Shown here: piece by piece, positions 6,586 to 52,054 of the stretch
Position numbering within the stretch: position 1 is the stretch's first letter
Layout: every line of letters begins with the position of its first letter
Origin: Chromobacterium phragmitis
GTDB taxonomy: Bacteria; Pseudomonadota; Gammaproteobacteria; Burkholderiales; Chromobacteriaceae
Assembly: GCF_003325475.1 (NCBI RefSeq)
Contig: NZ_CP029495.1
Location: 2,631,353-2,695,352 of the forward strand
Direction: 5' to 3'
DNA length: 64,000 nt
Notes under the pieces: model-generated
Seen by the model: only the letters and a program-made list of their open reading frames with translations
Database searches by the model: none
What the model was told of the DNA's origin: nothing
Made by a program: the position numbers and the translations under genes

Positions 6586-6679
6586 GGAGAAATGGCCGAG
6601 TGGTCGAAGGCACTTCCCTGCTAAGGAAGCATACGGGCTTAAACCTGTATCGAGGGTTCGAATCCCTCTTTCTCCGCCA
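6586..6679 (+). tRNA. tRNA-Ser (anticodon GCT)
   Basis: Cloverleaf with long variable arm, anticodon loop cuGCUaa, T-loop GGTTCGAATCC, 3' CCA encoded. Confidence 0.85.
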
Positions 6680-6685
6680 GATGCC

Positions 6686-6762
6686 GCACCCGTAGCTCAG
6701 TTGGATAGAGTATCTGGCTACGAACCAGAGGGTCGGGCGTTCGAATCGCTCCGGGTGCACCA
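6686..6762 (+). tRNA. tRNA-Arg (anticodon ACG)
   Basis: GCACCCGTAGCTCAGTTGGATAGAGT… with anticodon loop cuACGaa; T-loop GTTCGAATC; CCA encoded. Confidence 0.85.
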
Positions 6763-6766
6763 AGAC

Positions 6767-6841
6767 GTCCCTATAGTTTAGCGGTTAGAACACCGCCCTT
6801 TCACGGCGGTGGCCGGGGTTCGATTCCCCGTGGGGACGCCA
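6767..6841 (+). tRNA. tRNA-Glu (anticodon TTC)
   Basis: GTCCCTATAGTTTAGCGGTTAGAACACC… with anticodon loop cuTTCac; T-loop GGTTCGATTCC; CCA encoded. Confidence 0.85.
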
Positions 6842-6855
6842 GGATTCAGAAAAAG

Positions 6856-6883
6856 CCTCGTATGAAAATACGAGGTTTTTTTT
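6856..6883 (+). terminator. Rho-independent terminator after the + tRNA array
   Basis: Hairpin CCTCGTA-tgaaaa-TACGAGG followed by a T8 tract. Confidence 0.75.
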
Positions 6884-7312
6884 ATCCAGATCAATGACAT
6901 TGGCATTGCGGTTTCGGCATTTTATCTTGTGCTGGTGGTGTCGGACTTTTGATTCGGTTCCAGCCTGGTTTGGCGGCTATGCGGCGGGTGATTGTTGCGC
7001 GCCGCTGATTTCTTTTGGGGTGAGAGCGCGGGTCTGTTGTTTGTGCTTGCTTGTGTTTTGGTCGTCGGGTGTCGGTTGCTGTCGTCCGGTGGGATTTGGC
7101 GTGGCTGCTTGGTGTCATTCTTTGCGTAGTGGCGGATTTGGGTCGGCTTACGATGCTCTTCGGGGTGGTTGTTTCGGTTTTGTGGGGCGGGTGTTGTCAT
7201 TGCCGGTGGTGGCGTTGGATTTGAGATGGGTGTGGGTTGGCGTGGGGATTTGTTTGAGCGTGGAGTGCGCGGCGAGTCTGTCATTCTGAGGTGGGGTGCG
7301 GCGGCGAGGGGA

Positions 7313-7343
7313 AAGAAAAAAGCCTCGTATTTTCATACGAGGC
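7313..7343 (-). terminator. Rho-independent terminator after the - tRNA array (mirror copy of the + terminator)
   Basis: Hairpin GCCTCGTA-tttca-TACGAGGC with a T-tract on the minus strand. Confidence 0.7.
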
Positions 7344-7356
7344 TTTTTCTGAATCC

Positions 7357-7431
7357 TGGCGTCCCCACGGGGAATCGAACCCCGGCTACCGCCGTGAAAG
7401 GGCGGTGTTCTAACCGCTAAACTATAGGGAC
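7357..7431 (-). tRNA. tRNA-Glu (anticodon TTC)
   Basis: Reverse complement of the + strand tRNA-Glu with one substitution. Confidence 0.85.
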
Positions 7432-7434
7432 AGC

Positions 7435-7511
7435 TGGTGCACCCGGAGCGATTCGAACGCCCGACCCTCTGGTTCGTAGCCAGATACTCTATCCAACTGA
7501 GCTACGGGTGC
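7435..7511 (-). tRNA. tRNA-Arg (anticodon ACG)
   Basis: Reverse complement identical to the + strand tRNA-Arg. Confidence 0.85.
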
Positions 7512-7516
7512 AGCTT

Positions 7517-7591
7517 TGGCGTCCCCACGGGGAATCGAACCCCGGCTACCGCCGTGAAAGGGCGGTGTTCTAACCGCTAAACTATAGGGAC
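7517..7591 (-). tRNA. tRNA-Glu (anticodon TTC), second copy
   Basis: Same sequence as 7357-7431. Confidence 0.85.
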
Positions 7592-7600
7592 GCTGAGTTG

Positions 7601-7677
7601 TGGTGCACCCGGAGCGATTCGAACGCCCGACCCTCTGGTTCGTAGCCAGATACTCTATCCAACTGAGCTACGGGTGC
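7601..7677 (-). tRNA. tRNA-Arg (anticodon ACG), second copy
   Basis: Same sequence as 7435-7511. Confidence 0.85.
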
Positions 7678-24720: not shown

Positions 24721-27700
24721 TTGGTGCGGCGGCTTGCGGGAGGGGGAATGGAGGCCGATAGCCGGCGCTTGCGCAATATCATGGTCATGGCCTACGTGCT
24801 GATCGCCGCTGTCTGGATCGTCGTGCCTGACATGTTGGCGATCATGGGGGGCGAGGAGGGCGGCGTCGCGGGCGGACTGGTCTGGGACGCGTTGTTTGTC
24901 TTCGTCACCGCTGTTTTCCTGTACCTGCTGCTGCGCGGACGCCGCGCGGAGGATATGGCGGGGCTGAAACGGGCGGGCGCGCCGGGGCGGGCATTGTTGC
25001 GGCTGGCAAGCCGGGGGCCCGCGCCCTTGATCGCGCTGTACGCTGTGTCGGCGATGCTGATCCTGGCCGCGCCGGAGTTGTTGTGGTCGCGCCTGCTGGA
25101 CAGCCGGCTGTATTTTCGCGTGATCCCGGTTTGGGATCTGGCCTTCATCGCCGGTAGCGGGGCTTTGCTGCGGCTATGCCTGGACTCGGAGGCCGCTGGC
25201 GATCGCGGGCCGGAGGGCGGCAAGCGGTTTGTCTATCTGTTCGCCCTGGCCAGCTCGCTGCTCATGTTGTTCATCCGTTTTCAATTGTCTCCGCAGTTCT
25301 CCAGCCAGCATCTGATGTTGCTGTTTCTGATTCCAATCGGCCTGAGCGCGCTGCTGGGCGGCTTGGGGCCAGGCTTGCTGGCCACGTTCTTCATCGCGGC
25401 TTCGATAGCCTATCTGTTCGCCGCCGCCGCGCCGGACATGCCGGCGCATCCGGCTGTTTTTCTGCTGTCGCTCAGCCTGCTGGTGCTGGTGGGCACGCTG
25501 CTCAGCGTGATGAGCGAAGTGCAGCTGCGCGCGCGGGCCAGGCTGGCTCAACTGCTGTCGCTGCAGGCGGACATGGTGGATGCGCTGGGTCGGAGCGAGG
25601 AGCGCTTCCGCGCGCTGTTCGACGACAGTCCGGTGGCGATGGCCATCTCTCGGCTGGAGGACGGCGCCATCGTCGAAGCCAACCGCGCATTTCTGGAGTT
25701 GTTGGGCCTGGAGCGCATGCCGGTGCAGGGAAGCACCACGCGCGGGCTGGGCATTTGGGCAGACATCAAGGATAGGACGCGCCTGTTCGATGCGTTGCGG
25801 AAAGATGGGGAAGTGAAGGGGGCTCCCGTGCGGCTGTTGCGCAGCGACGGCGCCGGGCTCGACGTGCTGTTGTCATTCAGGCTGATTCAGCTTGGCGGCG
25901 TGGATCACGTGCATGGCGTGGCGCTGGACGTCAGCGATAGGCAGCGCGCGCAGCTGGCCTTGCAGGACAGCGAAGCCCGGCTGGCCGGCATGGTCCGTTC
26001 CGCGATGGACGGCATCATCACGGTGGACGAGGAGCAAAGGATAGTCTTGTTCAACGTGGCTGCCGAGCAGATATTCGGCCGCCGGGCGGAGGACATGTTG
26101 GGACAGCCGTTGGAGGGGCTGCTTCCGGCTAGCATGCGCTCGTCGCATCGGCAGATGATGCGCAGTTTCGGCGAGCGTGGCGTCAGCGCCAGGCGCATGG
26201 GACGCTTGGGCAAGGTCCAGGGCATGCGCGCCGATGGCCAGCTGTTCGATCTGGAGGCGTCGATTTCGACTCTGGAGGTAGGGGGGCGGCGCAGCTATAC
26301 CGTTATCCTGCGGGATATCAGCGAGCGCGAGCGGGCGCAAGCGGAAACGCTGCGACACATGCAGCAGTTGGAGTCGCTGAACGATTTGAACCGCGCGATC
26401 CTGACCGCCAACGACGCCGAGCAGATCGCGCTGATCGGACTGCGCAGCTTGCGCCGGCTGGTGCCGTTTTGGGGCGCCACCGCGATGTTGATCGATTGGG
26501 AGGGCGGGTTCGCCAAGGTGCTGGCCATCGAGCGGGTGGCCGGCGCCGGCTACGACCCTGGCCAACGGCTGAGCCTGATCAGTTACGGCATGGACGATCT
26601 GGAGCGGATGAAGAAGGGAGAGCCGTGCCTGGTGGGGGACCTGGCCACGGTGTCCAGGCGTCCGCTGACGCTGGAGCGGCTGTATCAGCAGGGCGTTCAA
26701 TCCTATGTGCGCATCCCGCTGATGGCTGAAGGCCGCTTGCTGGGCATGCTGAACCTGGTTTCGGACGCACAGGGCGCTTTCGACGAGGCGCAACTGGAGG
26801 TGGCCCAAGCTTATGCCCGGCAATTGGCGATCTGTCTGCAACAGTCTTTGCTGCGTCAGCATGTGGCCCGTCTGGGACGGGTTTACGAGGTGCTGAGCCG
26901 GATCAACGCGCTGATCGTCCGGTGTCGCGATCGCGAGGCGCTGTTCGACGGCATCTGCAAGGTGGCGCTGGAAATCGGCGCCTATCGTATGGCCTGGGCC
27001 GGCGTGATTGACGAAGACACGCAGAATGGCACGGTGGTCGCCTTCCGAGGCGAGGACAGCGACTATCTCAGGCAGATAAGGCTGAGCGCGCGCGAGGACT
27101 TTCTGTACAAGGACAGGCCGGCCTGCCGGGCGGTGCGGCTGCGGGAAATGGTGGTGTGCAACGACGTGCAGGGCGATCCCTCGTTGTATAGCCAGGCGGC
27201 GGAGCTGCAGAGCCACGGCGTGCGCGCTGTCGCCTGCCTGCCCATCCTGCTGGACGACAAGGCGGTCGCCGTGGTGGCGTTGTTCGCCGGCGACGTGGGC
27301 GCCTTCGATCGCCAGGAAACGACACTGTTGCGAGAGTTGGCCAGCGATGTCGGCTATGCGCTGGATCATATCCGCAAGGAAGAGCGCCTGCATTATCTGG
27401 CCTACTACGACAGCCTTACCGGCCTCGCCAATCGCAGCCTGCTGGGCGAGCGGCTGGCGCAGCATATGTCGGATGTCGCGGTGGAAGGGCGGCGTTTCTC
27501 GGTGGCCGTCTTCGATCTGGAAAACTTCAAGTCCATCAACGACGTGCTGGGACGCGTCCAGGGGGACAAGGCGCTGCAGTTGTTGACGAAGCGGCTGGCG
27601 CTGCATGCCCCGGACGCCTCGCTGCTGGCGAGGCTGGGGGCGGATCGGTTCGCGTTGGGGCTGCCGCTGGCATCCGGAGAGGAAGAGGCGGCGCTGGCGC

Positions 27701-28692
27701 TGGAACTGGTGAGGCAGAATTGCCTGGATGCGCCCATCGTGCTGGACGGGAATGAGTTGCGCTTGTCCGCCAAGTTCGGTCTTGCCATCTATCCGGATGA
27801 CGCCGATACCGCCACTTCCTTGTTGGAACGAGCGGAGTCGGCTTTGAAGCGGGCGAAGGCGGGCGGAGAGAAGTTCCTGTTTTATCGCCAGGAAATGACG
27901 GATCGGGCCGCGGCGGTGCTGGAGATGGGCAGCCGTTTGCGCCAGGCGCTGGAGCGGGAGCAGTTTGAACTGCATTACCAGCCCAAGTTCGCGGCGAAAG
28001 GCCATGCGCTGGCCGGCGTGGAGGCGCTGCTGCGTTGGCGCTGCCCGGAGCGCGGCATGGTGTCGCCGGCGCAGTTCGTGCCGATGCTGGAGGAACTGGG
28101 ACTGATCGTGGAGGTGGGCGATTGGGTGGTGCGTCAGGCGGCGCGCGACTTCCAGGCCTGGAGAGCGGCGGGCCTGGACGCCCCGAGGATCGCGGTCAAC
28201 GTATCGCCGCTGCAACTGCGGCAGGCGGATTTCGCGCAGTCGCTGGCCGCCGCGCTGGGGATGCCGGCTGACCAGGCCGGCATAGACATCGAGATAACCG
28301 AAAGCCACATCATGGCGGATGTGGACAGCAGCATCGCCACCTTGCGGCAGGTCAGGGACTTGGGCGTCTCCATCGCGCTCGACGATTTCGGCACCGGCTA
28401 TTCCTCTCTGGCCTATCTCGCCCGTCTGCCGGTGCAGACGCTGAAGATAGACCGCGCCTTCGTCAGCAGGATGCAGGAGGAAGAGGAAGCGATGACGCTG
28501 GTGGAGATGATCGTCTCGCTTGCGCACTCGATGGATCTGGAAGTCGTGGCGGAGGGGGTGGAAACGGAATCGCAGGCCCAGGTGCTGGAGGGTTTGGGCT
28601 GCGATGTGCTGCAGGGCTACTGGCTGAGCCGGCCGGTGCCGGCGGCCGAGCTGGCGGCCAGGCTGGCCGCCGGGGGGGGAGGGGCGGCATAG
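24721..28692 (+). CDS. Very large multidomain sensor with membrane region, PAS, GAF, GGDEF and EAL domains
   Basis: 1323 aa. Multi-TM N-terminus, PAS blocks, GAF-like regions, GGDEF-like RLGADRF site (degenerate), EAL (…EALLRW…DDFGTGYSSL…). The precise start, 24721 or the downstream Met, is uncertain. Confidence 0.85.
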   Translation: MVRRLAGGGMEADSRRLRNIMVMAYVLIAAVWIVVPDMLAIMGGEEGGVAGGLVWDALFVFVTAVFLYLLLRGRRAEDMAGLKRAGAPGRALLRLASRGPAPLIALYAVSAMLILAAPELLWSRLLDSRLYFRVIPVWDLAFIAGSGALLRLCLDSEAAGDRGPEGGKRFVYLFALASSLLMLFIRFQLSPQFSSQHLMLLFLIPIGLSALLGGLGPGLLATFFIAASIAYLFAAAAPDMPAHPAVFLLSLSLLVLVGTLLSVMSEVQLRARARLAQLLSLQADMVDALGRSEERFRALFDDSPVAMAISRLEDGAIVEANRAFLELLGLERMPVQGSTTRGLGIWADIKDRTRLFDALRKDGEVKGAPVRLLRSDGAGLDVLLSFRLIQLGGVDHVHGVALDVSDRQRAQLALQDSEARLAGMVRSAMDGIITVDEEQRIVLFNVAAEQIFGRRAEDMLGQPLEGLLPASMRSSHRQMMRSFGERGVSARRMGRLGKVQGMRADGQLFDLEASISTLEVGGRRSYTVILRDISERERAQAETLRHMQQLESLNDLNRAILTANDAEQIALIGLRSLRRLVPFWGATAMLIDWEGGFAKVLAIERVAGAGYDPGQRLSLISYGMDDLERMKKGEPCLVGDLATVSRRPLTLERLYQQGVQSYVRIPLMAEGRLLGMLNLVSDAQGAFDEAQLEVAQAYARQLAICLQQSLLRQHVARLGRVYEVLSRINALIVRCRDREALFDGICKVALEIGAYRMAWAGVIDEDTQNGTVVAFRGEDSDYLRQIRLSAREDFLYKDRPACRAVRLREMVVCNDVQGDPSLYSQAAELQSHGVRAVACLPILLDDKAVAVVALFAGDVGAFDRQETTLLRELASDVGYALDHIRKEERLHYLAYYDSLTGLANRSLLGERLAQHMSDVAVEGRRFSVAVFDLENFKSINDVLGRVQGDKALQLLTKRLALHAPDASLLARLGADRFALGLPLASGEEEAALALELVRQNCLDAPIVLDGNELRLSAKFGLAIYPDDADTATSLLERAESALKRAKAGGEKFLFYRQEMTDRAAAVLEMGSRLRQALEREQFELHYQPKFAAKGHALAGVEALLRWRCPERGMVSPAQFVPMLEELGLIVEVGDWVVRQAARDFQAWRAAGLDAPRIAVNVSPLQLRQADFAQSLAAALGMPADQAGIDIEITESHIMADVDSSIATLRQVRDLGVSIALDDFGTGYSSLAYLARLPVQTLKIDRAFVSRMQEEEEAMTLVEMIVSLAHSMDLEVVAEGVETESQAQVLEGLGCDVLQGYWLSRPVPAAELAARLAAGGGGAA

Positions 28693-28713
28693 GCTCCGCC
28701 CCTGGCCGCCGGC

Positions 28714-29118
28714 TCAGCGGTCTCGGCGCCAATCATCGCCGTGGCCGCGGCCATGGTCCCAGCCCTCATGGCGGCCATGGTCGTGGTGGTACTCGCGATA
28801 GCGGGGCGCGTAGACGCGGTTGTACCAGTCGTCGCGGACGAAATACACCTTGCGGCCGCAGGCGCCGTAGCGTCCGCAATAGCGGCCCCATTGCTTGATG
28901 TGGCCAGGGGGCACCCGCAGGTAAAGAGGCGGCATCACCGCCACCGCGGGCTGAATCACCACCGGTTGCGGGTAGATCAGTTGCGGCGGCGGGTAGCCGC
29001 CGATGTCTATCTGGCCGTAGAAGCCGGGTTCGCCGACGCTGATGGACACGCCGGCCTGGCTGGGCAGGCTGGTCAGGGAGGCGGCGATCAGCATCGCCGC
29101 GGTCATCACGTGTTTCAT
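28714..29118 (-). CDS. Secreted hypothetical protein with His/Arg/Asp-rich C-terminal tail
   Basis: 134 aa. Signal peptide, P/Y-rich core, C-terminal HHDHGRHEGWDHGRGHGDDWRRDR. Confidence 0.55.
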   Translation of the reverse strand: MKHVMTAAMLIAASLTSLPSQAGVSISVGEPGFYGQIDIGGYPPPQLIYPQPVVIQPAVAVMPPLYLRVPPGHIKQWGRYCGRYGACGRKVYFVRDDWYNRVYAPRYREYHHDHGRHEGWDHGRGHGDDWRRDR

Positions 29119-45357: not shown

Positions 45358-46449
45358 ATGTCATCGCAATTTCATGGCCTGGCTGTAGGAAACGGAAATA
45401 GCAATTATCTGCAGGTGCTGGGATTGGCCAATTTCACGGACGCCGCCTATCTGACGGACTGGCAGGACTCCAGCGGCAACTGGCACGCCGGCTTCGCCTT
45501 GCCGGTTCCGTCCGATTATCCGAAGGGGCACTTTTTCCAACTGACGACCGGCATCGGCAACAGCAGCTATCTGCAGGTATTGGGCGCGGGCGAGGACGGC
45601 AACCCCTATCTGGTGTCATGGCAGGACGGCGGCGGCAGCTGGCACGGCGGCATGCCGCTTCCCAAGCCCAGCGGCTACAGCGGCGGCCCCCTGATCACCG
45701 GCTCCGGCAACAGCAACTACCTGCAGGTGATCGGCGCGCGGGTGGAAACCACGCCTTATCTGGTGGCTTGGCAGGACAATAGCGGCAACTGGCACGCGGG
45801 CATGCCGCTGCCCAACCCCAGCGGCTATGCCGGCGGTTTCCAGCAATTGGCCACCGGCAACGGCAACGACCACTACTTGCAAGTGGTGGGCGTGGGCAAT
45901 GACGGCAACGCCTATCTGGTGAACTGGCAGGACAACAGCGGCAGCTGGCACCCTGGCTTCGCGCTGCCCAAGCCCAGCGGCTACAACGGCACCTTCACGC
46001 AGCTGGCCACCGGCGTGGGCAACAGCAATTATCTGCAGGTGCTGGGCATCGGCACCGACGGCAACGCCTATCTGGTGGCCTGGCAGGACAACGGCGGCAA
46101 CTGGCACCCTGGCTTCGCGCTGCCCAAGCCCAGCGGTTACAACGGCACTTTCGCCAAGTTGGTCACCGGCATCGGCAACAGCAATTACCTGCAGGTGTTC
46201 GGCATCGGCGGCAATGGGACGGCCTATCTGATCTCGTGGCAGGACAACGGCGGCAACTGGCACGGCGGCCTGACGCTGCCGCAGCCGTCCGGCTACAGCG
46301 GCAGCTTCTCGCAATTGGCCGCCGGCAATGGCAACAACCATTATCTGCAGGTGGTGGGCTCCGACGCGCAAGGCAATGTCTACCTGGTGTCGTGGCAAGA
46401 CGCCGAGGGCAAGTGGCACGCCGGTTTCGAGCTGCCGAAAACGGCTTGA
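45358..46449 (+). CDS. Eight-repeat beta-propeller lectin-like protein (AAL/RSL-type fucose-lectin-like blades)
   Basis: 363 aa consisting almost entirely of eight tandem repeats of about 45 aa: [L]-x-TG-x-GNSNYLQV-x-G-x-G-x-DGN-x-YLV-x-WQDN-x-GNWH-x-G-x-x-LP-x-PSGY-x-G. The W-D-x-x-G-x-W-x-x-G core resembles blade motifs of Aleuria/Ralstonia fucose lectins. No signal peptide. Confidence 0.7.
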   Translation: MSSQFHGLAVGNGNSNYLQVLGLANFTDAAYLTDWQDSSGNWHAGFALPVPSDYPKGHFFQLTTGIGNSSYLQVLGAGEDGNPYLVSWQDGGGSWHGGMPLPKPSGYSGGPLITGSGNSNYLQVIGARVETTPYLVAWQDNSGNWHAGMPLPNPSGYAGGFQQLATGNGNDHYLQVVGVGNDGNAYLVNWQDNSGSWHPGFALPKPSGYNGTFTQLATGVGNSNYLQVLGIGTDGNAYLVAWQDNGGNWHPGFALPKPSGYNGTFAKLVTGIGNSNYLQVFGIGGNGTAYLISWQDNGGNWHGGLTLPQPSGYSGSFSQLAAGNGNNHYLQVVGSDAQGNVYLVSWQDAEGKWHAGFELPKTA

Positions 46450-47982: not shown

Positions 47983-48700
47983 GATCAAAAACAGCCTGCC
48001 GCTGGGAAGCGGACAGGTTGACGGTGTTTATGGCGCGTGATTTAGAGGACGCGGGTGAGGAGCGTCAGCGACTCGCCCATGCGTTTGTCCAGCGGCTCTA
48101 GCAATTCCTTGATGCGGCTGGGCTGCAGGCTGGCGTCGTATAAGCGTAGGGTGCAATACCCGGCTTGAAACGATTGGATGTAACTACCTTTCAGCCGGGC
48201 ATTGCACCACTTTGGCATTCCGCGAAATCAAAACCAGCCTGCCGCTGGGAAGCGGACAGGCTGTCGGTGTTTATGGCGCGTGATTTATTAGAGGACGCGG
48301 GTGAGCAGCGACAGAGACTCGCCCATGCGTTTGTCCAGCGGCGCCAGCAACTCGGTGATGCGGCTGGAGGGCAGACGGACGTCGTAAGCGTAGGGTGCAA
48401 TACCCGGCTTGAAACGATTGGATGCAGCCATCTTGCAGCCGGGCATGGCAGCGTCTTGGCATTCCGCGAAATCAAAAACAGCCTGCCGCTAAGAAGCGGA
48501 CAGGCTGTCGGTGTTTTGGCGCGTGGTTTAGAGGACGCGGGTGAGCAGCGACAGCGACTCCCCCATGCGTTTGTCCAGCGGCGCCAGCAACTCGGTGATG
48601 CGGCTGGAGGGCAGGCGCACGTCATCGCCCAGGCAAGCGAGCAGTTCGATGACTGACTGCAAACCCAACTGGCCGTGGGCGAGGTGGCAGATGGGCTCCA
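47983..48700. repeat. About 2.9 tandem copies of a roughly 240-bp unit: terminator hairpin + last 30 codons of the downstream gene + stem-loop spacer
   Basis: Stop-codon landmarks at 48042, 48288 and 48528 (periods 246 and 240 bp). Each unit carries CAGCCTGCCGCTGGGAAGCGGACAGGCTG hairpin + A-tract (a terminator on the minus strand). Copies are 85-95% identical. Confidence 0.8.
48288..48431 (-). CDS. Possible 47-aa mini-ORF created by the middle repeat copy (new N-terminus fused to the conserved C-terminal 31 aa)
   Basis: ATG at 48431 (minus strand) reads MAASNRFKPGIAPYAYDVRLPSSRITELLAPLDKRMGESLSLLTRVL*. The C-terminal 31 aa (DVRLPSS…LTRVL) are identical to those of the 48528-48824 gene. No obvious SD. 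Could equally be a silent relic. Confidence 0.25.
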   Translation of the reverse strand: MAASNRFKPGIAPYAYDVRLPSSRITELLAPLDKRMGESLSLLTRVL

Positions 48701-48824
48701 CCACCGCCTGCTCGATGTCCCGGCATAAATGCGCCACGCGCGCGGCCGGCTCTCTTACCTTTGCTTGGTCTTTGCTGGCCAATTGTTCTTGCAAGGCGGC
48801 AAAGGCTTCGTGCAGCCGGGTCAT
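48528..48824 (-). CDS. Hypothetical small protein (98 aa from MTRLHEAF…)
   Basis: ORF with GC3-rich codons whose 3' end is the source (or target) of the upstream tandem repeat. Start placed at the internal Met. Confidence 0.5.
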   Translation of the reverse strand: MTRLHEAFAALQEQLASKDQAKVREPAARVAHLCRDIEQAVVEPICHLAHGQLGLQSVIELLACLGDDVRLPSSRITELLAPLDKRMGESLSLLTRVL

Positions 48825-49801
48825 GGCCAGCAGGCTGGGCGGATGGGTGGGGACTTGATTGTGCAGCAGCCAGCGGCTGCGGGCGGGATGACGGTTGTTC
48901 AGGGAAAACGCGAGATGCGATGAACTGCGGGTGATGCTAGGCATGGCAAAACCCTCCTGGATAGGTGCTTAACCCTGCCAACCCCAACGCCAAGTAGGGG
49001 TGGCAGGCACATGGCGGGATTGGCGTACCGATCCAGGAGCGGCGCATCATAGATGCTCCCACCATGGCCCGCCATAGAGGACGTGCAATGGTGTACGGAC
49101 GCGACAAGGCCCAGCCTTGCACAGAAGTCCGCCTGAATGCGGGACGCCAATCCCGGTGCCGCTATTGAACGGCACGATTGAGATTATCCGGCTGGAAGGC
49201 TTGCTAGGCAAGCAATTGGGGCTGGAATAGGGTGTGCTTTGGGGCAGTACGTAGAATCCGCTGCGCGGCTGATGGTTTGGATTGCCGGGGTTGCCCGGCG
49301 GCAGGCTTGAAGGGATTGGGGCGCGTCGCAAACGCGCTTGCGTTTTGCCAGCGATGAATAGGGCATGACATTTTGCCGTGGCTTGCTTAATCGGTAGCTG
49401 AACCGAACCGACTTGCCCCCATCCCATCAGCGCAAGCCGACTTCGGAGCCATTTTCAAGGTTTTAAGACGCCGGTTTGTTCGACGTCGCGCGACGGTAGC
49501 GCGCGGCTAGTTCCGGCGGCTCCTTGAAAATGGCTTCGGAGGCGGGGTTTCGCAGCGCTGTTGGGTCGCCTTTTCTTTCGTCCATTTCTTTTGGCGAAGC
49601 AAAAGAAATGGACCCGTCCAGCCGGGCGGAACCGGCACTTAACGGTCAGTCCGCGAAGCGGACACAAACTAATCTGTATTACGTGGTAGCCGTTTGACCT
49701 TGGTGGCTCAGTCGCGATTTGCGGACTTTAAACGAATTGCGAACTTCAAGCTTTGCTAGGCTAGTGAATGAATTATAATTTTATTGAGTGAAAAGGTGAA
49801 A

Positions 49802-49829
49802 TAAAAAAGCACTTGTTTCTCAAGTGCTT
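49802..49829 (-). terminator. Rho-independent terminator ending the AT-rich island operon
   Basis: AAGCACTTG-agaaa-CAAGTGCTT + T-tract on the minus strand. Confidence 0.75.
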
Positions 49830-49860
49830 CCGAGTGCGGAGCTTTACTTTATTGGGTTGG

Positions 49861-50190
49861 CTAACTATTTTTAATGAGATCTTTCTTTTCAACTTCTTGG
49901 CTTTCAATATTTCTTTTTGTCTCTTTGAAAGCCTGAACAAAACTGTTAATGAGTTTTTCTCTCTTGTTATTCGTTGGTGACAGTTTTTCTCTGCATGATG
50001 TTTTTTCTATTTTCCACCCAGTCCTTATTTTTTCTTTTTTGGTGGCTGGTAAAGAGCTGTTCTCTATTGATCTAAATGATTTAACTTGAGGTAGCGATGA
50101 GCGTAGAGCTTTGTCTAGCTCTATAATAAATATTCTTTCTGACTCGGTTGGAGCTCTAAGTTTATTAATTTTTGCCATTTTTATCTCCAT
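49861..50190 (-). CDS. Lys/Glu-rich hypothetical protein, distal gene of the AT-rich island
   Basis: 109 aa, strongly AT-biased codons, 15 bp downstream of the 570-aa gene on the same strand. Confidence 0.5.
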   Translation of the reverse strand: MEIKMAKINKLRAPTESERIFIIELDKALRSSLPQVKSFRSIENSSLPATKKEKIRTGWKIEKTSCREKLSPTNNKREKLINSFVQAFKETKRNIESQEVEKKDLIKNS

Positions 50191-50205
50191 AATGAGCTGT
50201 GGAAA

Positions 50206-51918
50206 TTAACCTAGCCACTGAGCTGGATTGCTAATTTTCAGTGGCTCAGCCCCCATAAGTTCAAATCTGACAGCATTGTCATCAGTACGATTATCCATCG
50301 TTACCTGTTGACTCTGCATTGCCGCTAAAGATAAAAGAAAGCCATGATGGCGATCTGGCAATATCAAATGTTGAGTCTTTCCCGTGTGGTGCTTCCAAAG
50401 GGCGACGGAGCGAACTCCGTTAGTTTCTTGTCGATTTGATCTATCTACCATCGCGGCAGAAGTAACACTTAAAATTGCTGATCCGGGGTCATCAGCTAGT
50501 ACTGTTGCATAACGAGCCGGCCAGCGTGTTGTGAGCTGTGGCCCATCCATCAGTAATGCTATCACGAGGTTGGGTCCGATAGCTCGTACAGCAGGAAGTG
50601 CGGGATCGTTACGTGCCAAATCCTCACATACCAAGACGGCTATACACGCATCTCTCTGGATTGTATAGAACGGTAGATGTCTTTCTGCCACGTCAATGTG
50701 CTCCCACCAGTCAACATTACTGTCTGCCGGGAATGATGAAAAGTTGTAACGTTGCGTTTGTGCAACATCAAGCTTCCATCTGTGATGCTTTGAGTGTTCG
50801 TATTGAAAAAATTCCTCATTATCAACAAGGAAATATGACATTGCTTTGTTTTTTGGGATTTTATTTGGAACGCTACTTATAACACCTGAAATTAAAATTC
50901 TAAGGCCATTTATATATTCATCCCTAGCTAAAATACGAGCGAGCTCATATGAAACCTCTTCAGTCAGTGAACACTCTGGGAAGATAACACAATCAATTTT
51001 TTTGTAGTGTCTTCTTGATTCAAGTAGAAGAGGTTTGACAAGATCATTGTATATATTCTTGGCAATTTCACATGGTTGCTCTTTTCCAAAACCTGGTATC
51101 CAAGATGGGTCTAGTTCAAAGTAGCCAAATTTTTTAATATTTTTCTTACTCGCTTTGGGGGGACATCTTGGTCTTATTGCAGTCGCTTTCATTTCAAATG
51201 GATACGGGATGAATAGAGCATTAAATCTTGTTTCGTCAGATAATAGAAAGTTTTCAGGGCTTAAAGATTCGACATTTTGCAATGAGTTCCAAGAAATTTT
51301 CAGCTTAGGCTGAGCTTCATGAAGTGCAAGGTGATGACTTAAAGATCGAATTGAAAATCCTACGGATGGGCATATTGACTTTGGTGTGACTACAGCTCTT
51401 TGGGGAGGTATTGCGTAGCATAAGGAGAATGGAAAGTATGGAGGCCTAAGGCATTCAAGTTTTTGACTTGTAATTGCCTGTAAGTTATCTATTTTCATTA
51501 ATTTTGGGAAGAGCAGTCCGCTAAAAACGGAGTCTTGAAAGTCTAATCCCCAACCTAACCCTGCTGAAGCTTCGTCAGAGCAAGTAAATAAAAAATGTAT
51601 TTCTGAGACTAATTTCTCATCTCTATATATTTGATCAATTGCAGTTAATCTTTTCTTGTAGATGTAAGACCAGCTTCTTTTTATTTCTGAAGGAGGAGAG
51701 AAATTATCTTTCCATTCTGAGGCTACGGATGATATTGACTTCCTGCGAGTAAACTTTTTGGGATTTAAAAGGACGGCTTTTTCCATTATGGTTGCAGTAA
51801 AAGCAAACGTATCTGATGGCCAAGATGGACAATTTTCTACGGATTTTCCAAAGTTAAAATTTTCATTACTTTGTGTCCCATTTGGGAATAGAAATTCTAT
51901 CATGTCTTGTATGTTCAT
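50206..51918 (-). CDS. Large hypothetical protein of the AT-rich island; C-terminal half has a candidate nitrilase/CN-hydrolase-like Glu-Lys-Cys triad
   Basis: 570 aa uninterrupted ORF in a region of about 35-40% G+C (estimate by eye). Motifs VIFPE (E315), YEHSKHH (K377) and VLVCEDL (C431), spaced as in the nitrilase superfamily. N-terminal 300 aa show no recognisable domain. Confidence 0.55.
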   Translation of the reverse strand: MNIQDMIEFLFPNGTQSNENFNFGKSVENCPSWPSDTFAFTATIMEKAVLLNPKKFTRRKSISSVASEWKDNFSPPSEIKRSWSYIYKKRLTAIDQIYRDEKLVSEIHFLFTCSDEASAGLGWGLDFQDSVFSGLLFPKLMKIDNLQAITSQKLECLRPPYFPFSLCYAIPPQRAVVTPKSICPSVGFSIRSLSHHLALHEAQPKLKISWNSLQNVESLSPENFLLSDETRFNALFIPYPFEMKATAIRPRCPPKASKKNIKKFGYFELDPSWIPGFGKEQPCEIAKNIYNDLVKPLLLESRRHYKKIDCVIFPECSLTEEVSYELARILARDEYINGLRILISGVISSVPNKIPKNKAMSYFLVDNEEFFQYEHSKHHRWKLDVAQTQRYNFSSFPADSNVDWWEHIDVAERHLPFYTIQRDACIAVLVCEDLARNDPALPAVRAIGPNLVIALLMDGPQLTTRWPARYATVLADDPGSAILSVTSAAMVDRSNRQETNGVRSVALWKHHTGKTQHLILPDRHHGFLLSLAAMQSQQVTMDNRTDDNAVRFELMGAEPLKISNPAQWLG

Positions 51919-52021
51919 AATTTCTCTCTCAACAATCTCTTCCCGAAATTTCTATACCCGTATAGGTATATGGATTTTTTACCGTGGTGTGACTTTATAA
52001 GTAGGTATTTTAATGAATGAA

Positions 52022-52054
52022 AAAAGCCGCCCACCTTGCAGTGAGCGGCTTTCT
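52022..52054 (-). terminator. Rho-independent terminator downstream of lysS
   Basis: AAGCCGC…GCGGCTT stem with a T7 tract on the transcribed strand. Confidence 0.6.

Follow-up and report, generated by a model that had tools for sequence, protein, structure and literature searches.

Within the window, a stretch of 64,000 nucleotides of Chromobacterium phragmitis DNA, an AT-rich cassette beside lysS is a horizontally acquired, self-contained operon consisting of a presumed promoter, an enzyme gene, the gene of a small partner protein, and a terminator. The enzyme represents a new, divergent branch of the carbon-nitrogen (CN) hydrolase, or nitrilase, superfamily, and the partner is inherited with it while evolving very fast. 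Our preferred reading, to which we give a probability of roughly one half, is that the pair forms a nitrilase-fold conflict module of the abortive-infection or toxin-antitoxin (TA) type that acts independently of a reverse transcriptase (RT), a function that we infer from the evidence laid out below.

A horizontally acquired operon in a variable slot beside lysS

The original prediction, made from the letters of the DNA, described an abrupt fall in GC content between about 49700 and 52020, and measurement bears this out at essentially those positions. Windowed GC is 0.33–0.40 from ~49700 to 52050 and 0.58–0.67 on either side, and the cassette as a whole has a GC of 0.386, compared with ~0.62 in its flanks. 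Inside the cassette, a bump to 0.45–0.51 at 50200–50800 corresponds to the best-conserved portion of the large gene. The large gene has a GC of 0.398 and the small gene 0.33, vs 0.62–0.69 for lysS, mdh, prfB, and rtcB. Codon usage likewise marks both genes as foreign: GC3 is 0.32 in the large gene and 0.27 in the small one, compared with 0.85–0.90 in host genes, and a CAI-like index with the host genes as reference is 0.13–0.14 in the island and 0.74–0.84 in the host.

Alignment to a relative with an empty site (L089, CP024028.1) defines the boundaries. The two genomes share 96.6% identity over 54000–52020 and 84.8% over 49668–49400, and between these segments L089 has 4 bp where the window carries a 2,351-bp insertion (Table 1). 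Homology to all related genomes stops at 52020–52021. As had been stated at the outset, none of the flanking ORFs tested is an integrase, and no tRNA lies within 40 kb; an integrase- or tRNA-associated island was therefore rejected. The island DNA has no similarity to deposited phages, and no other defence genes lie beside it in this window. A terminator-like hairpin closes the operon close to the site first proposed (49802–49829). The promoter is presumed, since a sigma-70 consensus scan of 51919–52019 gave no match; the same upstream region contains a short inverted repeat, CTATAC-CC-GTATAG, at 51952–51965.

Table 1. Features of the island and its immediate flanks, in window coordinates
Feature	Position	Strand	Basis or remark
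AT-rich cassette, both genes and the regulatory ends of the unit	49669–52019	.	Alignment to L089, GC
Presumed promoter/leader, AT-rich	51919–52019	-	Read from sequence
Gene 1, 570-aa two-domain protein, stop codon included	50206–51918	-	ORF
Residues 1–170, helical N-terminal domain	51409–51918	-	Motifs CPxWPxDxFA and ADExxxGxGW conserved
Residues 176–212, highly conserved segment	51283–51393	-	PKSxxxxVGxTxRSLSHxLAL
Residues ~228–570, divergent CN-hydrolase (nitrilase superfamily) domain	50209–51237	-
Glu315 codon (GAG), predicted catalytic base	50974–50976	-	PEC motif; invariant; aligned to YafV LPE
Lys377 codon (AAG), predicted catalytic lysine	50788–50790	-	KHHRW motif; invariant; aligned to K of YafV DKRHLF
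Cys431 codon (TGT), predicted nucleophile	50626–50628	-	CEDLAR motif; invariant
Gene 2, 105 aa from M5 (109 aa if started at 50190)	49861–50178	-	ORF, NCBI call, Shine-Dalgarno
Intrinsic-terminator-like hairpin closing the operon	49805–49831	-	11-bp stem, T-run, ~30 nt past the gene 2 stop
lysS terminator, right edge of the cargo slot, host DNA	52031–52048	-	Terminator-like site
Structured ~280-nt element, left edge of the slot, outside the insertion	49400–49680	-	Common to relatives

The corresponding slots of related genomes, reached through LysS orthologues, hold different cargo. The slot is empty in L089, contains an FRG/PDC-S15 candidate defence gene in L090 (PADLOC, E 2e-58) and an uncharacterised 525-aa gene in L091/L092, and is occupied by a Tn7-like element in L095. 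The FRG and 525-aa genes were considered as relatives of the enzyme and rejected as unrelated. This comparison, which the prediction had put forward as a check, shows that the 3′ flank of lysS in Chromobacterium is a strain-variable hotspot of cargo exchange, useful for mining further systems. The precise insertion, the alternative cargo, and the foreign codon usage together support horizontal acquisition. The ~280-nt element, which has 78 predicted pairs (4 compensatory), is found at the empty site of L089 and beside the other cargo in L090–L092, with two copies in L090.

A divergent carbon-nitrogen hydrolase and its fast-evolving partner

Both open reading frames exist as originally described. 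The 570-aa product of gene 1 matches a C. phragmitis hypothetical protein at NCBI with 100% identity. It is a cytoplasmic enzyme (neither a signal peptide nor a delivery domain of a known kind was found), in which a novel helical domain of ~170 residues precedes a very divergent CN-hydrolase domain with predicted catalytic activity. Sequence libraries say little about it. Neither protein has a match in Pfam or NCBIfam at E ≤ 1 or any in PHROGs, and searches of PDB sequences with the single sequence, a full-length profile, and a hydrolase-domain profile returned chance matches only. PADLOC-DB 2.0.0 contains no catalogued system matching the pair, save for the enzyme's sole library match, a marginal one (E 0.0039, 135 residues) to the DRT model RT_UG5-nitrilase, within its nitrilase portion. 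A few UniRef entries carry the automatic name ‘CN hydrolase domain-containing protein’; a literature search found no published description of the family. The suggestion that the system may be undescribed is in keeping with its absence from all the libraries searched (Pfam, NCBIfam, PHROGs, and PADLOC).

The CN-hydrolase superfamily, reportedly set out by Pace and Brenner in 2001 and said to be represented in Pfam by CN_hydrolase (PF00795), includes formamidase AmiF, Nit2/omega-amidase YafV, beta-ureidopropionase, the glutaminase domain of NadE, Nta1, and Lnt; its members hydrolyse non-peptide C–N bonds, or carry out transfers at them, by way of a thioester intermediate. We assign the island enzyme to it by fold and catalytic triad, since the protein matches neither PF00795 or an equivalent curated model nor any PDB sequence. 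The alpha-beta-beta-alpha sandwich of the superfamily (about 260–300 residues) is present, and structural matches favour no known branch, Nta1 and Lnt included; the enzyme stands no nearer to one of them than to another. The Glu-Lys-Cys triad occurs in the same order as in the superfamily and with exactly the spacing that had been claimed, E315-(62)-K377-(54)-C431, as confirmed by checking the codons. None of the three residues varies among 42 sequences, whose identity goes down to 35%. In an hhalign comparison with Escherichia coli YafV (E 0.06), FPEC aligns with LPEM and SKHHRW with DKRHLF, and the Lys377 region has the K-x-H-x-aromatic signature seen in YafV. Predicted beta strands end at each member of the triad, and C431 follows the predicted strand E424-430 in the manner of the CN-hydrolase nucleophile elbow. 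For the second glutamate of an E-K-E-C tetrad there are two candidates: D384, at K+7 and conserved to at least 90%, and E406, which is invariant.

Other features set the family apart from known CN-hydrolases. These include the fixed helical N-terminal domain; the motifs LLMDGPQ, RWPxRYATVLAxDPG, and MVDRSN; the partner gene, present with every close relative examined; and the conserved PKS...RSLSH segment, in which P179, K180, G187, R191, H195, L199, and W210 are invariant. This segment has moderate-to-confident scores in the full-length model and drops below a pLDDT of 50 in a model of the N-terminal part by itself; it probably packs onto the hydrolase domain.

The downstream frame spans 49861–50190 (minus strand) at its full 109 codons, and the NCBI version begins at M5, 6 nt upstream of which lies a GGAG Shine-Dalgarno sequence. 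An open frame of 109 codons has a chance of ~6e-4 per position at this composition. The 105-aa protein is highly charged, as first noted (net +11, pI 10.1), has no hydrophobic stretch, and bears an N-terminal RAPTESE motif whose RAPTE core is also seen in the partner encoded by L097, the closest relative. The two genes are separated by 15–27 nt in the window and by 13–46 nt in relatives. A small same-strand ORF follows the enzyme gene in 9/9 close relatives examined, and homologues lacking it, which would have spoken against a functional pair, were not seen. Partner families were detected only downstream of the enzyme gene among ~27,000–29,000 six-frame segments, and partner type agrees with enzyme phylogeny at all of 40 loci.

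Sequence similarity among partners is faint, confined to a short N-terminal motif, R-x-x-T-x-x-E with hydrophobic residues, and a C-terminal helix; partners of relatives within the window's clade are acidic. The window protein (109 aa) has no homologue in a word-indexed search of 5.8 billion proteins, and a profile of the betaproteobacterial partner clusters c1, c3, and c4 failed to reach it. No HMM link joins c4 to c1 or c3. With a full-length HMM of six relatives, the window ORF is the top non-training match among 28,946 segments, a link carried by rank, as the score is modest (12.8 bits, E 0.19). Profiles of the N-terminal motif alone ranked it 19th (three relatives) and 58th (six relatives). 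The product of gene 2, small and mainly helical, is real and keeps its place beside the enzyme, with which it is inherited, although its sequence evolves very fast.

A widespread family carried by mobile elements

Homologues of the enzyme number more than 3,000, and the family comprises 2,275 clusters at 50% identity, whose representatives are nearly all full length. Across these clusters there is a single architecture, in which the N-terminal part always goes with the same C-terminal part. The distribution is patchy (325 of 185,579 species genomes) and extends over Proteobacteria, Acidobacteriota, Planctomycetota, and other phyla. The enzyme gene is lower in GC than its flanks at 68 of 85 loci.

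As mobile cargo, the pair is found in temperate phages (P2-like, lambda-like, and filamentous), on plasmids, and in defence islands. In P2-like prophages it occupies a slot between gpD and the lysogeny module, in a lambda-like prophage it lies in moron orientation, and in a filamentous prophage (inovirus) it is accessory cargo. A copy on an IMG/VR contig adjoins Dam methylase, endolysin, and DUF4376, the gene occurs on twelve plasmids, and a copy in Herbaspirillum follows an AAA and S8-peptidase pair. At ~80 loci, the two nearest genes on each side include members of BREX, Gabija, CBASS, Thoeris, Hma, IetA, and mad2, as well as type I/IIG restriction-modification genes, integrases, and resolvases; housekeeping genes of an ordinary kind make up most of the neighbours, and conservation does not extend to a third gene. 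A known defence system lies within two genes in ~15% of loci, a rate taken from summary tables without a matched control, so the strength of the enrichment is approximate.

A proposed conflict module and its alternatives

The locations are those expected of an anti-phage system: the lysS slot with its alternative PDC-S15 cargo, accessory positions in prophages, and defence-gene neighbours. Prophage positions and neighbours also lend circumstantial support to the earlier idea that the pair fits the pattern of defence or toxin-effector islands. If it is a conflict module, the enzyme, once licensed (e.g., by phage infection), would become toxic by cleaving a C–N bond (amide, amidine, or nitrile) in an essential metabolite or macromolecule, and the small partner would restrain the enzyme or couple it to the trigger. 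Several observations count against a conflict module, among them the largely housekeeping neighbourhoods, the lack of other defence genes beside the island in this window, and the modest score that links the window's partner to the others. An enzyme gene placed ahead of that of its small protein also departs from the commonest TA order, and the pair matches no known defence, TA, or phage family, with no homologue found by tblastn of the enzyme against 50,697 deposited phage genomes.

To our knowledge, few prokaryotic immune systems use nitrilase-fold domains, and the RT-nitrilase DRT1/UG5 group is the only established case. That group (class 3 UG/Abi RT-nitrilase) resembles the island family in its nitrilase-fold domain, intact catalytic cysteine, and mobile, defence-associated context. 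The nitrilase domain of DRT1/UG5 is the effector, with its cysteine required for defence, and the phenotype resembles abortive infection; the nitrilase substrate and killing mechanism are still not known (PMC13275509; PMC13436386). The island protein, in contrast, contains no RT, and none recurs beside family members, so an RT-associated nitrilase was rejected. Unlike DRT1/UG5, the island also lacks the transmembrane accessory (UG5-large), having instead the helical N-terminal domain and a soluble, charged small protein.

In layout, the pair recalls the two-gene TA and abortive-infection modules found as prophage morons, such as old/tin of P2 and the cargo of P2 and P4 hotspots: it is a compact operon of foreign composition with its own terminator, found at accessory positions of temperate phages and in a chromosomal slot that also takes other cargo. 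It has no homology to these modules. Rousset and colleagues are said to have described the cargo of P2 and P4 hotspots in 2022, reportedly defining the P2 hotspot as gpA–gpQ; the position of the family's slot in P2-like prophages led us to reject this hotspot as its site.

The bicistronic arrangement of an enzyme with a small, co-evolving protein is also that of type II TA systems, and the pair could be a selfish addiction module in which the enzyme is a toxin and the partner a labile antitoxin, stabilising the carrier with no role in phage defence. Tight linkage, a small, fast-evolving, co-inherited partner, copies on plasmids and prophages, and the acidic partners of the window's clade, like many antitoxins, all fit. 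We nonetheless consider such a module unlikely, given that neither protein shows homology to any known family of toxins or antitoxins (Pfam, NCBIfam, and PADLOC), that the toxin would come first, and that the copy in the window, being in a chromosomal slot, has no obvious element to stabilise. Many TA modules also protect against phages, so this explanation overlaps with the conflict module that we prefer. Another reading is that of an interbacterial toxin and the protein that confers immunity to it. Polymorphic toxins typically have this layout, with the enzyme followed directly by a small partner that is hypervariable and co-evolves with it, and the N-terminal domain would then serve delivery. 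Such toxins are hard to reconcile with one unshuffled architecture across the family, the lack of a signal peptide or known delivery domain, and the lack of recurring secretion-system genes among 276 neighbours, and we regard this as very improbable.

Two further readings, both of which we think quite unlikely, concern what the enzyme acts on. Most characterised CN-hydrolases are metabolic, and the enzyme might be an amidase or nitrilase of everyday metabolism or detoxification, carried as a lysogenic-conversion trait, with the downstream ORF incidental; many neighbours are metabolic, including NAD synthase in 2 of 128 cases. However, ~80 loci share no conserved transporter, regulator, or pathway gene, and co-inheritance of the partner at 40/40 loci, the extra domain fixed across the family, moron-like positions, and the patchy distribution all count against this. 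Alternatively, the small protein could be the substrate, deamidated or acylated by the enzyme, with the modified form as the active agent. Precedents are Nta1, which acts on protein N-termini, and Lnt, which acylates an N-terminal amine. The conserved partner motif lacks an invariant Asn, Gln, or Cys, the usual targets, no export or maturation genes are conserved nearby, and the structural matches prefer neither Nta1 nor Lnt over other branches.

A bolder form of the preferred conflict-module reading, which we hold only tentatively, would make the pair the founding example of a widespread RT-free anti-phage system, in which a new thiol C–N hydrolase branch, a novel helical sensor or regulatory domain, and a hypervariable restraining partner would convert infection into the destruction of an essential amide-bearing molecule. 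It would define a new CN-hydrolase branch, a new helical domain, and a small-protein family that escapes ordinary homology searches. With only two genes and no RT, the module would be a much simpler system for asking what defence nitrilases attack, and could be a tractable route to their substrates, those of DRT1 included. It would share its catalytic chemistry with the DRT1/UG5 nitrilases, and the family occurs in ~2,300 clusters from several phyla and is spread by prophages and plasmids.

An AT-rich island in a variable slot beside lysS

Between about 49700 and 52050, GC content in 300-nt windows falls from 0.58–0.67 to 0.33–0.40, the sharp drop beside lysS that the original prediction described; it rises internally to 0.45–0.51 at 50200–50800, over the third of the large gene that is best conserved. 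The two predicted genes are present and are followed by a terminator-like hairpin of their own. They encode a 570-aa protein, hereafter the enzyme, and a small partner, for which the NCBI annotation gives 105 aa starting at codon 5, with GGAG ahead of it. Codon usage confirms the compositional break: third-position GC is 0.32 in the large gene and 0.27 in the small gene vs 0.85–0.90 in lysS, prfB, mdh and rtcB, and a CAI-like index that takes these four host genes as its reference set is 0.13–0.14 for the island genes vs 0.74–0.84 for the host genes. As anticipated, neither an integrase nor a tRNA was found near the island.

We compared the site across genomes whose LysS is 98% identical to that of the window. 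One of these, L089 (CP024028.1), aligns with window 54000–52020 at 96.6% identity and with window 49668–49400 at 84.8% identity, and just 4 bp separate the two aligned blocks; therefore, window 49669–52019 (2,351 bp) is an insertion. The presence/absence polymorphism sought among Chromobacterium genomes thus includes this empty slot and several with other cargo. In genome L090 the slot holds genes for an FRG-domain protein, with a match to PDC-S15, a candidate defence family in PADLOC (E 2e-58), for a 242-aa protein and for a DUF3916 protein. L091 and L092 carry a 525-aa protein unrelated to the enzyme and without a match in Pfam, PADLOC or PHROGs, another unexplored cargo gene of the lysS hotspot. 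In the more distant Chromobacterium L095, a Tn7-like transposon (TnsA-like, Mu-type transposase, TniB and TniQ, with cargo that includes a helicase) lies straight after lysS, so that the 3′ flank of lysS may serve this element as an attachment site.

The slot is limited by the lysS terminator on one side and by a conserved, highly structured element of ~280 nt on the other, and the simplest reading is that cargo is exchanged by homologous recombination between conserved flanks. L090 has two copies of the ~280-nt element, placed on either side of successive cassettes. The extended secondary structure predicted for the element has 78 pairs, 4 of them with compensatory changes, and includes a hairpin of the UUCG type and a 14-bp stem without mismatches. 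An Rfam search of the element returned no match; candidate roles are those of an unannotated sRNA, a recombination element and an insulator.

Coordinates of the island and other local features (window positions unless a genome is named)
Feature	Coordinates	Strand	Remark
Large gene	50206-51918	(-)	570-aa ORF
Small gene	49861-50190	(-)	109-aa ORF
Terminator-like hairpin	49805-49831		after small gene
lysS terminator	52031-52048		
Conserved ~280-nt element	49400-49680	(-)	left boundary of cargo slot
~280-nt element, other copies	L089 9574-9845; L090 10440-10722 and 11925-12205; L091/L092 11325-11609		
525-aa cargo protein	L091/L092 9697-11274		
Tn7-like transposon	L095 10125-15723		
C4 antisense RNA	48996-49079		full-length
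C4 region	48996-49187	(-)	
DUF1484 gene	48528-48944	(-)	
Tandem array	47984-48623		~244-bp unit x3
Repetitive protein	45358-46449	(+)	363 aa
Mirrored tRNA cluster	6586-7677	(+) and (-)	

A putative C–N hydrolase and its variable partner

The best match of the enzyme is an NCBI protein from Chromobacterium phragmitis (100% identical), and searches of Pfam, NCBIfam and PHROGs models and of PDB sequences gave no match. The sole library match, a marginal one, aligns residues 301–435 with the nitrilase part of PADLOC RT_UG5-nitrilase (E 0.0039). A confident structure prediction from a 42-sequence alignment (pLDDT 84.7, pTM 0.88) has exclusively CN-hydrolases as its top Foldseek hits in the PDB, with formamidase AmiF best (E 7e-9), followed by Nit2, beta-ureidopropionase, NadE glutaminase domains and Lnt. 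The residues proposed as a nitrilase-like triad, E315, K377 and C431, do not vary across 42 homologues with identity down to 35%, and lie in extended motifs (PEC, KHHRW and CEDLAR) where predicted beta strands end. A weak profile alignment (E 0.06) to E. coli YafV, a Nit2-type amidase, sets FPEC on LPEM and SKHHRW on DKRHLF, the Glu and Lys signature motifs; D384 and E406 are candidates for the second catalytic Glu of the tetrad. By predicted structure and conservation, the enzyme belongs to the CN-hydrolase superfamily, with a thiol C–N hydrolase fold and an intact triad. It fails the curated CN-hydrolase sequence models and fits no described branch. Members of this superfamily attack non-peptide C–N bonds through a Cys thioester.

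The family is large: a word-indexed search recovered >3,000 homologues, and an exhaustive profile search 2,275 representatives of 50%-identity clusters (1,442 with E < 1e-30). Nearly all representatives are 540–630 aa long and matched end to end, so the two-part architecture is fixed. Relatives occur in 325 of 185,579 species-representative genomes, mainly Burkholderiales and Alphaproteobacteria but also Acidobacteriota, Planctomycetota, Verrucomicrobiota and Myxococcota; separately, 12 plasmids carry one. At 68 of 85 loci the enzyme gene has a lower GC content than its surroundings; the difference is 15–24 points in the window's own clade.

A word-indexed search with the window's small protein found no homologue. 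We looked for enzyme homologues without the predicted partner; all nine close relatives and plasmid copies inspected have a small same-strand ORF 13–60 nt after the enzyme gene, independently called by the source annotations. Downstream ORFs of 84 loci form several BLAST families (13, 9, 6, 5 and fewer loci). Among about 27,000 six-frame segments, partner-family profiles find further members solely at the post-enzyme position, and two of these families recover one another in reciprocal searches. The six relatives closest to the window have partners that are mutually alignable (that of the closest, L097, starts MTKKLKFIANRAPTEKELKIMKIF vs MAKINKLRAPTESERIFIIEL in the window), and a profile of these partners, with the window left out, ranks the window ORF 1st of 28,940 non-training segments (12.8 bits); partner ORFs from two other families are among the matches that come next. 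Profiles of the N-terminal motif alone are less discriminating (window ORF 19th and 58th).

At 40 of 40 loci the type of partner agrees with the enzyme phylogeny, so the pair is inherited as a single unit: a mobile two-gene operon with a co-inherited, hypervariable partner and a fixed extra domain in the enzyme. Sequence comparison indicates a far higher rate of evolution in the partner than in the enzyme. Most partners in betaproteobacterial families, and that of the window, are basic (pI 9–12); three prophage copies and most Acidobacteriota copies have acidic ones. In three Mesorhizobium loci (L066, L069 and L070), the best sub-threshold partner-profile hits abut the enzyme stop codon on the opposite strand, and could represent a convergently oriented partner or chance.

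Genomic setting and possible function

The unit lies among the accessory genes of temperate phages and in defence islands, a setting that agrees with the defence or toxin island first proposed. A number of close relatives travel as phage cargo. In two P2-like prophages the gene lies between gpD and the lysogeny genes, an interval distinct from the P2 gpA–gpQ hotspot (Rousset et al.). Other relatives are found in a lambda-like prophage (between portal and terminase genes, on the opposite strand), behind zot in a filamentous prophage, and next to an HTH/M78-peptidase regulator. One relative sits on an IMG/VR contig beside a Dam methylase, an endolysin and a DUF4376 protein, and a Herbaspirillum copy comes after an AAA and S8-peptidase pair. 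The 50,697 deposited phage genomes contain no enzyme homologue.

In a wider survey of the two nearest genes per side at about 80 further loci (276 proteins), no neighbour family recurs more than four times, so the unit has no third gene. Among the neighbours are PglZ/BrxL, GajB, CBASS cyclases with effectors, ThsB, HmaB/C, mad2, an IetA match and R-M genes of type I and type IIG; integrases, resolvases, a transposase and ordinary housekeeping genes also occur. A recognised defence system lies within two genes at roughly 12–14 of 80 loci, a raw, uncontrolled count. NAD synthase (PF02540) and LigT / 2′-5′ RNA ligase domains each appear among 2 of 128 neighbours of distant members (alignment A7), counts too small to interpret; of note, the glutaminase domain of NadE is a CN-hydrolase too.

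Among known defence systems, a nitrilase-type domain occurs only in DRT1 and UG5, which depend on the Cys and show an abortive-infection-like phenotype, their substrate being still unknown (PMC13275509, PMC13436386). By analogy, we put at about 0.5 the probability that the two-gene unit is a conflict module of this type, differing in that it lacks their defining reverse transcriptase. The enzyme would be the effector, and the partner its inhibitor or a trigger-coupling subunit. PADLOC-DB 2.0.0 does not catalogue the unit, and a search within the available paper library found none on a stand-alone nitrilase-fold defence or toxin module.

Other roles for the two genes appear less probable. A purely selfish toxin–antitoxin pair is the foremost of these, if an unlikely one. 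We consider it doubtful, to the same degree in both cases, that the enzyme modifies its partner or that it is a metabolic amidase of the ordinary kind, and an interbacterial toxin with its immunity protein would be surprising.

Further features of the window

Besides the ~280-nt element, a C4 antisense RNA (Rfam RF01695; 53.4 bits, gathering score 45), with an a1/b1 target element and isrK matched weakly just upstream on the same strand, is followed by a DUF1484 gene (Pfam E 5e-52). This arrangement, of host-like GC, looks like P1 immI-like regulation ahead of an uncharacterised gene. The tandem units (75–95% identical) are duplicates of the DUF1484 region's 3′ part; L091 and L092 have two to three DUF1484 copies at the corresponding place, so the array expands and contracts. 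The 363-aa protein is strongly repetitive internally, with many staggered self-similar alignments to its L089 orthologue and only faint S_locus_glycop-type hits in Pfam. In the mirrored tRNA cluster, Ser-Arg-Glu (+) faces Glu-Arg-Glu-Arg (-) at a distance of about 500 bp.
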